Shown: one piece after another, positions 44,180 through 47,130 of the stretch
How positions within the stretch are numbered: position 1 is the stretch's first letter
How the letters are laid out: each line of letters opens with the position of its first letter
From: an uncultured bacterium
Lineage (GTDB): Bacteria > Verrucomicrobiota > Kiritimatiellia > RFP12 > UBA3636
Direction: 5' to 3'
DNA: 64,000 nucleotides
Assembly (NCBI GenBank): GCA_902761575.1
Contig: CACWKU010000002.1
Span: forward strand, 5,578 to 69,577
Made by a program: the position numbers and the translations under genes
The notes under the pieces: generated by a model
Database searches by the model: none
Told to the model about the DNA's origin: nothing
The model's input: the letters and a program-made list of their open reading frames with translations, nothing else

Positions 44180-47130
44180 TCAAGGCCCCCAAGAAACTCA
44201 TCGAGGTTGCGCTGCCGCTCAAGGCAATCAACGAAGCAGCTTCTTACGAGAAGAAGCCCGGCATCGGCGCACATCCGCGAGGACTCCATCTCTGGTGGGC
44301 GCGACGCCCTCTCACAGCCGCGCGCGCCGTCCTTTTTGCTCAGCTCGTGAACGACCCGGGCGGTCAGCGCGGCTGGGACTCCCGCAAGGGAATCACGAAA
44401 GAGAAGGCGCAAGCGGAGCGCCAACGCCTCTTTGATATCCTTAAAGACCTCGTGAAATGGGAGAACACGGACAACGAGGCGGTCCTCGCCGCCGCCCGCC
44501 GCGAAATCGAGCGCTCGTGGCGCGAGACGTGCGAGATGAACCGCGGCGAGCCCGGCTTCGACCCGGACAAGCTTCCCGCCTTCCACGACCCCTTCGCCGG
44601 CGGCGGCGCGATTCCCCTCGAAGCGCAGCGCCTCGGCCTCGAAGCTTGGGCGAGCGACCTCAACCCCGTCGCGGTCGCCATCAACAAGGCGATGATCGAA
44701 ATCCCGCCCCGTTTCGCCGGTCGTGCGCCCATCGGCCCCGAACCGGAAGGGTCGCGCTCCCGCGCGAACGCGACGGAAGACTCCCGACAGCAGACCCTCG
44801 GCCTGTCCGAGGACGCGCAGGAGCGCGTCCCTCCCCACGACTGGCCCGGCGCCACCGGCCTCGCCGAGGATGTCCGCCGCTACGGCGCGTGGATGCGCGA
44901 GGAGGCGAAGAATCGCATCGGCCATCTCTACCCGACCGTGAGAATCACGAAGGAGATGGTTAAGAAACGACCCGACCTGAAGGACTACGTCAATCGCGAT
45001 CTAACCGTCATCGCCTGGCTCTGGGCGCGCACGGTCAAGAGTCCCCATCCTGCATTCTCCGACTGTGAGGTTCCCCTCATCTCTTCCTTCGTTCTTTCGA
45101 CCAAAGAAGGAAAAGAAGTTTGGCTCGAACCTGTCATTGACGGGAGAAACTGGCGCTTTGTAGTCCACACTGGAACCCCTTCGAAAGACGCGGAAAACGG
45201 AACGAAACTCGGCAACGGCGCCAACTTCAAGTGCATTCTCTCCGGCGCTCAAATGGATTCCGACTATCTCCGGGCCGAAGGATGCGCAAAACGAATGGGA
45301 CAACGGTTGTTCGCCGTTGTCCTCGATGGCGGCAGAGGGCGCGTATTCATCGAACCGCAATCCGGCATGGACGAGCTTGCAAAATCGGCAAAGCCAACTT
45401 GGAAACCAACCGCGAAACTTCCGAACGATCCCCGCAACTTCTGGACGCCTAACTACGGTCTTACGACATACGGAGACCTCTTCACCAATCGCCAACTTGT
45501 GGCTCTCAACACCTTTCTAGACCTTGTGCAGGAAGCACGCGGAAAAGTGCTTACGGACGCCAAGGCCGCTTTTTGGTCCGATGACGGCGTTCGACTCACC
45601 GATGGCGGTTCTGGTCCGACCGCTTACGCCGACGCGGTGGCTACGTATTTGATGTTCACCATAAACCGTTGCGTTGATTTCAACAGCCAGTTGAATCGCT
45701 GGTCGGCAAGCAACCAGAAGACGATGAATACCTTTGCACGGCAGTCACTGCCGATGACATGGGACTTTGGTGAAACGAACATTCTAAACGATGGAGTGGG
45801 AGGGTTCTTCACCTGTGCCGACTATATTTCCAACTGTATTCTAAAGTTGCCCGCAACGAGTTTCGGAACTGTCGCTCAAGCGGATGCTCAGACACAATCA
45901 CTTTCGCAGAACAAAATCATTTCGACCGACCCACCTTACTACGACAACATCGCATATGCGGATCTCTCGGATTTCTTCTACGTCTGGATGCGGCGCGGGC
46001 TTCGTCGTATTTCTCCCGGTCTGTTCTCATCCATCGAGACACCGAAGGAAGAGGAGCTCGTTGCATCGCCCTATCGCCACGACGGCCCCAAGCAAGCAGA
46101 AGCGTTCTTCATGGACGGGATGACGGCAACGATGAAAAATCTGGCCGAACGAGCGCACCCGGCTTTTCCCGTCACGATTTACTACGCCTACAAACAGTCG
46201 AAGGCCAACGAGAAAGGTACGGGAAACGCCGGATGGGAATCCTTTTTGGAAGCCGTCATCCGTGCCGGATTCCAGATTACGGGTACTTGGCCGATGCGAA
46301 CAGAGCAGGAAACCAGAATGATTGGGATGGGCACGAACGCGCTGGCTTCCTCCGTCGTGCTGGTCTGCCGGAAGCGGCAAGAGGACGCGAAAGTGGGGGA
46401 CCGGCGCGAGTTCCTGAAGCGCCTTCGCGAAAGGATGCCTGAAGCGCTGGAAGAGATGGAGGGCGGCGAAGGACGGGCCGCGCAGGTTTCTCCCGTGGAC
46501 CGACCTCAGGCCGTCATCGGTCCGGGGATGGAGGTCTTCTCGTCCTTCGCCGAAGTCCTCAACGCGGACGGGACGCGGATGAGCGTCGGCGACGCCATCG
46601 TCGAAATCAACCGCTGGCTCGACCCCGACGGCGGCTTCGACCCCGAGACGCAGTTCTGCCGCGACTGGTTCCGCGCGCGCGGATGGGGCGAAGGTCCGAG
46701 CGGCGACGCCATCACGATGGCGCAGGGACAGGGACTCGCCGTGAACGCGGTTGTCGACGCGGGCGTCCTACGCTCGCGCGGCGGCAAGACCGCGCTCATC
46801 CACTGGCGCGACTATCCCGAGGACTACGACCCGACGAACGACCGGCACCGCCCGGCGTGGGAGGTCTGCCACCATCTCGTGCGCATCCACCAGAAGCGCG
46901 GGTCCGGCGCGGCGGGCGCCTTCCTCGCGCTCGTGCAGGAGCAAGGCGAAGCGGCGCGGCGGCTGGCTTACCAGCTGCACACGCTCTGCGAACGCAAGGG
47001 GCTCGCGGAGGACGCGCGCCCCTACAACGAGCTCGTCGCCGCATGGGACGACATCGCTGCCGCCGCGGCCAAGGCCATCGCCGCCGCGCCGAAGAAGCCG
47101 AAACAGGAACAGCTTGAACTGGGAATCTGA
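44176..47130 (+). CDS. DUF1156-family predicted N6-adenine DNA methyltransferase
   Basis: N-terminus [61 protein letters not shown] matches the hallmark DUF1156 N-terminal block. Downstream ..[19 protein letters not shown].. (SAM-binding-like) and ..[23 protein letters not shown].. (DPPY catalytic motif of amino-methyltransferases). Confidence 0.8.
   Translation: [984 protein letters not shown]

Follow-up and report, generated by a model that had tools for sequence, protein, structure and literature searches.

A low-GC block inside the hmaB methyltransferase gene of an uncultured Kiritimatiellia bacterium, a likely footprint of recombination between diverged alleles

Type I HsdS, type IIG/III Mod and BREX PglX methylases are all well known to exchange recognition domains by recombination. 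Published examples of such target-recognition-domain (TRD) exchange include PMC3077401 and PMC7394358. The Hma system owes its definition to PADLOC (PMC8565338), and defense against phage T4 has been demonstrated for its helicase-nuclease HmaA; for phage T4 grown on a host expressing the methylase HmaB, no protective effect was seen (PMC11232893). A comparative study of 2026 renames Hma as ‘DUF499-centred BREX-related (BR) systems’ and reports them in about 3,600 taxa (PMC12839542). In that study, the methylases of BR systems and of type-3 BREX are described as carrying a nested insert, called the TRD insert, with a zinc finger in it; the insert of the BR-system enzymes is called fast-evolving, and a helix-turn-helix (HTH) triad is assigned to the C-terminus of BR methylases (PMC12839542). 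The present analysis concerns hmaB in a 64,000-nucleotide stretch of a contig (CACWKU010000002.1) from an uncultured bacterium of the Kiritimatiellia, a stretch referred to below as the window. The center of this gene is strikingly poor in G+C, and this low-GC block is best read, with some reservation, as the trace that a mosaic evolution of hmaB has left in base composition, through repeated homologous recombination between diverged alleles.

The gene (nucleotides 44176–47130, plus strand) encodes a predicted DUF1156 N6-adenine DNA methyltransferase of 984 residues, the putative HmaB of an Hma / BR defense operon. The PADLOC HmaB model PDLC00660 matches residues 2–969 with 1467 bits (profile positions 5–958 of 967), Pfam DUF1156 (PF06634) matches residues 12–88 with 91 bits (cut-off 24), and the Pfam D12 methylase family matches motif I with 24.5 bits (cut-off 22); ~8000 HmaB homologues were found. 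With the HmaB proteins of described Hma / BR systems (PMC8565338; PMC11232893; PMC12839542) the protein shares the full-length model match, DUF1156, motif I, a large nested insert before the DPPY motif, a helical C-terminus and an adjoining DUF499 ATPase, HmaC.

An earlier note on this DNA had pointed, by eye, to a low-GC block at 44950–46350, and measurement bears it out: the interval has a G+C content of 53.9%, the lowest of any 1.4-kb stretch in the window, in which 500-bp windows have a median GC of 0.69 (standard deviation 0.045). In a 300-bp sliding profile, the GC content drops from 0.67–0.73 to 0.48–0.57 between ~44,900 and 46,400 and then returns to 0.68–0.75, and in the hmaB reading frame the G+C content at third codon positions (GC3) is 0.82–0.92 outside the block and 0.48–0.70 within it, where first positions (GC1) are also lowered and second positions (GC2) stay flat. 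The edges were located by a two-change-point likelihood fit to GC3 with 300 permutations, which returns codons 289–716 (nucleotides 45040–46323, plus strand), with support intervals at residues 261–292 on the left (~30 codons) and 709–725 on the right (~17 codons), and thereby matches the limits drawn by eye. GC3 is 0.598 inside the fitted block compared with 0.838 in the rest of hmaB, and by this fit the dip, for which the note had asked a quantitative GC and GC3 analysis, is significant (log-likelihood ratio 35.7, permutation maximum 11.1). The dip is not an effect of amino-acid composition, because the amino-acid-specific codon usage of host genes, applied to the amino acids of the block, predicts a GC3 of 0.933 against the 0.613 observed (z = −27.8). 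The other host genes in the window have a GC3 of 0.86–0.96, in a genome of 68% GC, and relative to host genes the ends of hmaB are themselves mildly depressed (0.82 and 0.86).

The block takes in the distal two-thirds of the nested insert, a hypervariable cassette termed V, DPPY and the greater part of the fold's catalytic half. The note's description of the block as an insert does not hold, because the homologues are colinear and almost gapless through residues 241–715, with no more than 9% gaps in any 30-residue bin; an intein, an insertion sequence or an added domain is rejected on the same grounds. The hmaB open reading frame (ORF) is unbroken, and it is homologous over its full length. 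The S-adenosylmethionine-binding motif I (residues 138–150; 44587–44625) lies in the high-GC N-terminal part and catalytic motif IV, DPPY (residues 585–588; 45928–45939), lies inside the block, with a spacing of ~430 residues between the two; both DPFAGGG (residues 138–144) and DPPY are invariant in 118 homologues. The earlier placement of the block between these two regions is therefore right as to motif I, which is outside, and wrong as to DPPY, which the block passes by ~130 codons.

Conservation along the protein, computed from the 118 homologues, shows, in the comparison that the note had proposed, that the block agrees in part with the hypervariable region of the family. Mean pairwise identity is 0.43–0.57 over most of residues 331–540 and reaches its minimum of 0.31 at residues 541–570, so that residues 331–570 are indeed variable, but residues 571–720 are well conserved (0.66–0.80), and a second hypervariable stretch of high GC3, the disordered linker at residues 181–240, is situated outside the block. 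Nor is the block the most conserved part of the protein, the opposite outcome which the note had considered: the most conserved parts are N-terminal and outside it. The core of the linker (residues 181–225; 44716–44850), which is rich in Ser, Arg, Glu and Pro, has an identity of 0.41 with 30–36% gaps and a predicted local distance difference test (pLDDT) score below 50, and keeps a host-like high GC3; it probably evolves by in-situ indels, unlike the central cassette.

The interior of hmaB appears to be exchanged between backbones. For comparison, HmaB was divided into segments N (residues 1–180), T1 (300–480), V (480–570), K (570–735) and C (740–984), the identity matrices of which are only weakly correlated (Spearman 0.17–0.56). 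There are proteins that agree at 90% or more in their ends and at only 35–60% in their centers, and some pairs with ends 0.91–0.97 identical have V segments at 0.34–0.41. The ends share 85% identity or more in 324 pairs, and the 25 of these that differ most in V show 34–41% identity there and 46–98% in T1, as illustrated by P0014 and P0036 (ends 0.93, T1 0.98, V 0.41) and by P0008 and P0066 (ends 0.92, T1 0.48, V 0.39). Conversely, when V sequences are clustered, V types 7, 19 and 34 are shared by several backbone clades, and a single clade holds as many as 12 V types.

The same is seen at the DNA level in four related rumen/gut contigs, L092–L095, which contain the same four-gene operon. L092 and L093 are 93–100% identical over codons 1–180 and 751–930 but 42–68% identical over codons 331–420 and 481–570, and the transitions are abrupt, with nucleotide identity falling at the junctions from 99% to 48–64%. 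At four-fold degenerate sites the two genes have identities of 0.90 and 0.87 in the ends versus 0.30 in K (Fisher p = 5e-17), a saturation that rules out divergence of the protein in situ and requires replacement. L094 and L095 have T1 in common (92–94%) but not V (47–61%). Furthermore, over alignment columns 721–840 L095 is 64–72% identical to L092–L094, which are themselves 77–98% identical there, and in exactly these columns its GC3 is 0.20–0.50 versus 0.59–0.83 in the other three. A case of the opposite sign is L056, located in a Chitinophaga metagenome-assembled genome (MAG) with a host GC of 0.50, in which the center (0.71) is GC-richer than the ends (0.54–0.62), and the center is more similar to that of L045, from a host of 0.65 GC, than the ends of the two are to each other. 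These two cases tie the deviating composition to exchanged patches.

The hmaB of the window is itself a patchwork of segments with different nearest relatives, its nearest relative changing segment by segment along the protein. The N segment is nearest to P0002 and P0003 (82–85% amino-acid identity) and T1 to L001/P0002 (80%, the next best being about 61–65%), whereas V is nearest to L012 (68%, versus 40–44% to P0002), a Kiritimatiellae MAG which elsewhere in the protein is the furthest of the five. K shows star-like relations, at 76–79% to many relatives, and the C segment is again nearest to P0002 (94%, versus 56% for L012). In BLASTN comparisons the homology with L002 and L005 breaks off at 45,650–45,900, in the V cassette (residues 481–570; 45616–45885), which is also delimited by the identity profiles. 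At the other end, the last ~160 codons of hmaB are 93–94% identical in nucleotide sequence to L001, with a four-fold-site identity of 0.82 compared with 0.52 elsewhere (p = 2e-7), and a breakpoint follows at the hmaB/hmaC junction (~47,050–47,250), across which identity to L001 falls from 0.93–0.95 to 0.73–0.76 and identity to L002 rises from 0.79–0.87 to 0.93–0.94. The alternative alleles among strains that the earlier note had proposed to look for were not found: seven contigs from different samples are 99.9–100% identical and show zero differences inside hmaB. In-cell switching of specificity, by a shufflon, an inverting hsdS or a diversity-generating retroelement, was considered and rejected, since the window contains no silent copies, flanking inverted repeats, template repeat or recombinase for it, nor a second copy of the block as DNA or protein, and the repeats present are short and at chance level.

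A dip of this kind is not peculiar to the window. In addition to four metagenome contigs of the window's own clade (the window's contig, L002, L005 and members of the clade of L012), the comparison comprised 78 of the 80 hmaB loci fetched from GTDB species-representative genomes, 82 loci in all, with codons projected onto the coordinates of the window. In 78 of the 82, drawn from many phyla, the GC3 of residues 300–715 is below that of the ends, the mean dip being 0.135 (Wilcoxon p = 4e-14); the dip of the window, 0.23, ranks fifth among the 21 loci in hosts with a GC of at least 0.64, and among hosts of similar GC the depth of the dip across loci extends from −0.11 to 0.41. The averaged GC3 profile is V-shaped, beginning near residue 330, reaching a minimum of 0.54 at residues 541–570, where the ends stand at ~0.85, and recovering by residues ~720–750, so that the bottom of the valley coincides with the least conserved stretch of the protein. 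Regressed on host GC, GC3 has a slope of 1.6 in the ends versus 1.2–1.3 in the center, where the scatter is larger. The closest relatives of the window's protein, P0002, P0003 and P0004 (79%, 72% and 66% identical; contigs of 62–65% GC), each have a central GC3 dip, with edges unlike those in the window.

The valley is specific to the interior of hmaB rather than to low conservation in general, since two poorly conserved controls keep a host-like GC3. The hypervariable linker (residues 181–240) is near its expected GC3 family-wide and at 0.80–0.93 in the window, and in hmaC, from the same loci, GC3 in high-GC hosts is flat at 0.81–0.89 despite regions with a pairwise identity of 0.33–0.41, the only exception being a small dip at residues 801–840. 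A generic tendency of variable regions or of gene centers to be AT-rich is rejected for this reason.

According to the explanation favored here, which we hold to be probable though by no means secure, the hmaB interior (the distal insert, the V cassette and the DPPY-bearing catalytic half) would have been repeatedly replaced between diverged alleles, with crossovers scattered through the conserved sequence that flanks it and with the conserved catalytic half hitch-hiking with the variable modules. Imported centers would keep the synonymous-site composition of their source, which would on average be more AT-rich than the current host, while the ends would recombine mainly among close relatives and so stay host-like. 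The family average of such events would be a V-shaped GC3 valley centered on the cassette, and in a host of 68% GC one instance would appear as a 1.3-kb block at 54% GC. A second process may contribute, in that the force favoring GC may be weaker in the divergent center; where alleles are too divergent for heteroduplex formation, this would produce a deficit even in low-GC hosts. The diversifying selection behind the exchange would come from phages: the exchanged modules may set the methylated sequence, and swapping them would re-target the defense system. Such a specificity role for T1 and V is suggested by their position, their variability and the published TRD assignment. The recombinational swapping of a target-recognition region proposed by the earlier note is accordingly supported as regards a mosaic, exchanged interior, with recognition by the modules as its conjectural part.

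It is well established that DNA which is mobile or was recently acquired has an AT bias compared with its host, and loci that determine specificity, hsdS and O-antigen clusters for instance, are likewise rich in AT. A bolder version of the favored explanation, in which the hmaB interior is a trans-phylum pool of long-lived specificity cassettes that moves faster than the rest of the gene, with T1 and V assorting independently and with an AT bias whatever the host, is possible but rather doubtful.

Several observations weigh against explaining the block by the import of diverged centers. No donor of the block in the window turned up in 5.8 billion protein clusters, the best matches being 80% (T1), 68% (V) and 79% (K) identical in amino-acid sequence, so that the exchange in this lineage must be old or the donor unsampled; residues 256–715, searched alone, retrieved nothing above 61% identity beyond the relatives already known. 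The N-terminus, although high in GC, is only 83–85% identical to its nearest relatives, and divergence and low GC thus coincide imperfectly. The right edge of the block (residue ~716) is not accompanied by an identity breakpoint versus L001, which is found near residue 820 instead. In hosts with a GC below 0.52, the GC3 of V is 0.38 against 0.56 expected, an AT-richness that a neutral pan-bacterial pool would not predict unless the pool itself were AT-biased. Finally, the putative part of T1 and V in DNA recognition is taken over from a published structural comparison.

The first of these difficulties bears also on an alternative that the earlier note had raised, namely a single recent chimeric acquisition in which a foreign fragment entered a resident high-GC hmaB of this genome shortly before sampling. 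Such an event would suit a block whose composition deviates more than any other in 64 kb and whose edges are well localized, but it is very unlikely, given the lack of a near-identical donor, the family-wide occurrence of the dip, its presence with other edges in the three closest relatives and the identity of the seven contigs in hmaB. Still less weight, in fact almost none, can be given to an artifact, whether of amino-acid composition or of an error in calling the frame or the gene. That GC1 drops in the block too would fit it, but the ORF is uninterrupted and homologous over its full length, and amino-acid composition as the cause is refuted both in the window, by the comparison of expected with observed GC3 given above, and across the family, where the amino-acid-corrected deficit persists in each of the four host-GC classes. 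Selection acting directly on the nucleic acid, with rare AT-ending codons slowing translation for the folding of the insert domain or holding down expression of the methylase, would look like the conserved constraint suggested by a dip in almost all homologues whatever the host. However, the valley is ~400 codons long, its edges vary between close relatives, its depth goes from none to 0.41, it follows the recombinant patch in L095, it runs well beyond the insert domain into the catalytic half, and no RNA family, repeat or antisense gene is present in the block (no RNA family was found in the whole of 38–53 kb, and an antisense ORF at 45001–45495 has no Pfam family); this explanation is most improbable.

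A more serious competitor is an equilibrium reached in situ, in which GC-biased gene conversion or codon selection would act more weakly on the center and let it drift to the AT mutational equilibrium in every host, either because divergence blocks heteroduplex formation with other alleles or because linked adaptive substitutions interfere with weak selection. The presence of the dip in all host-GC classes, including hosts below 0.52, its deepening as host GC rises, the centering of the valley on the least conserved stretch and the demonstrable recombination of the ends among close relatives are all in agreement with it. Against these stand the host-like GC3 of the linker and of hmaC regions with a pairwise identity of 0.33–0.41, the wide range of dip depths among hosts of similar GC and the center of L056, which is GC-richer than its ends, together with the near-identical genes whose centers show saturated four-fold sites and sharp junctions, the mark of replacement and not of drift. 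As the whole explanation an equilibrium in situ is unlikely; it could add to the effect of import rather than replace it.

In an AlphaFold2 model of HmaB built from 118 sequences (mean pLDDT 79), the nested insert domain (residues ~227–560; 44854–45855, plus strand) is placed between Rossmann strand 2 and the DPPY strand (residues 583–588), as it is in PMC12839542, from which its TRD function would follow by analogy. The insert is modeled with a pLDDT above 90 (residues 230–560) as a beta-rich module followed by long helices. Further core strands extend to residue ~733, the catalytic half K (residues 571–735; 45886–46380) being conserved as protein and low in GC3, and the C-terminal region (residues 743–970; 46402–47085), of high GC3, is mainly helical and modeled with good confidence. 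No solved structure related by sequence was found. Unlike the published BR and type-3 BREX methylases, this HmaB subfamily has no four-cysteine zinc finger in the nested insert: the whole protein lacks a Cx2-4C pair, and C353 is the only conserved cysteine within the nested insert in the 118 homologues.

Upstream of hmaB on the same strand is a gene for a putative PD-(D/E)XK nuclease of 334 residues (43175–44179; Pfam DUF4420, 48 bits), the stop codon of which overlaps the hmaB start by 4 nt, and 5 nt past the hmaB stop begins hmaC (47135–49897, plus strand), encoding a DUF499 AAA+ ATPase of 920 residues (PADLOC HmaC, 948 bits; Pfam DUF499). An SNF2 helicase with a C-terminal nuclease (HmaA), which Hma / type-1 BR systems combine with the methylase and the DUF499 ATPase, was not found at this locus. 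The small GC3 dip of hmaC lies at 49535–49654 (residues 801–840), with a value of 0.57 in the window and, in high-GC homologues, 0.72 versus about 0.84 elsewhere; these are the 40 most variable residues of HmaC (pairwise identity 0.25), and they are located in the C-terminal region for which a hypervariable RRM-like domain is described in PMC12839542. The operon is part of an island of ~15.6 kb (~38,300–53,900) with large host genes on both sides. The island also includes a truncated RhuM-family gene of low GC (38548–39030), a low-GC cluster of small minus-strand genes (49979–52331), among them DUF4417 and a Peptidase_M78/IrrE-like protein, and a HATPase_c_4/HTH regulator (53007–53786). There are no tRNA genes in the window, and contig L007 departs from the window just outside the island, at ~54,476–54,569. 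High-GC shadow ORFs are plentiful in the window; a plus-strand ORF at 34279–39030 is the shadow of a real minus-strand gene ending near 38289, and only its last ~160 codons (38548–39030), the RhuM fragment, are a real plus-strand gene part.

Compared with the TRD exchange of HsdS, Mod and PglX, that of hmaB has much in common: conserved sequence encloses the hypervariable modules, one backbone is found with various modules and one module in various backbones, the DNA junctions are sharp, and the variable part is atypically low in GC. In contrast to those systems, the hmaB modules sit within the catalytic Rossmann fold of one polypeptide, the conserved catalytic half is usually carried along in the exchange, the window is devoid of silent copies, inverted repeats and a recombinase for switching in the cell, and the link to specificity is putative. 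A likeness also exists to O-antigen (rfb) and capsule clusters, in which a diversified core is more AT-rich than the host and composition and relatedness recover gradually into conserved flanks because the crossover points are scattered; in hmaB, however, the pattern is contained within one gene (~1.3 kb) rather than a multi-gene cluster, and extends across many phyla rather than within one species. In the accessible parts of the Hma/BR literature, searched by term, no description was found of T1 and V modules assorting independently in HmaB, of a synonymous GC valley throughout the family or of a recognition sequence for Hma / BR systems. Most likely, hmaB is a new example of a known process, the swapping of internal segments between bacteria as in other restriction-type methylases.

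The analysis narrows the exchanged part of HmaB to two modules (residues ~330–480 and 481–570) with the adjoining catalytic half, and it provides, in L092/L093 and L094/L095, natural near-isogenic allele pairs that differ only in the exchanged modules. A within-gene GC3 valley can thus be an evolutionary signature of a whole family and need not mark a one-off insertion, a point to bear in mind when genome scans take local dips in GC for recently arrived foreign DNA. If the doubtful proposal of a trans-phylum cassette pool were true, a valley in synonymous GC would serve generally to locate, from sequence alone, the part of a defense gene that determines specificity, and the methylation motif of an Hma / BR system would be predictable from its T1 and V types.

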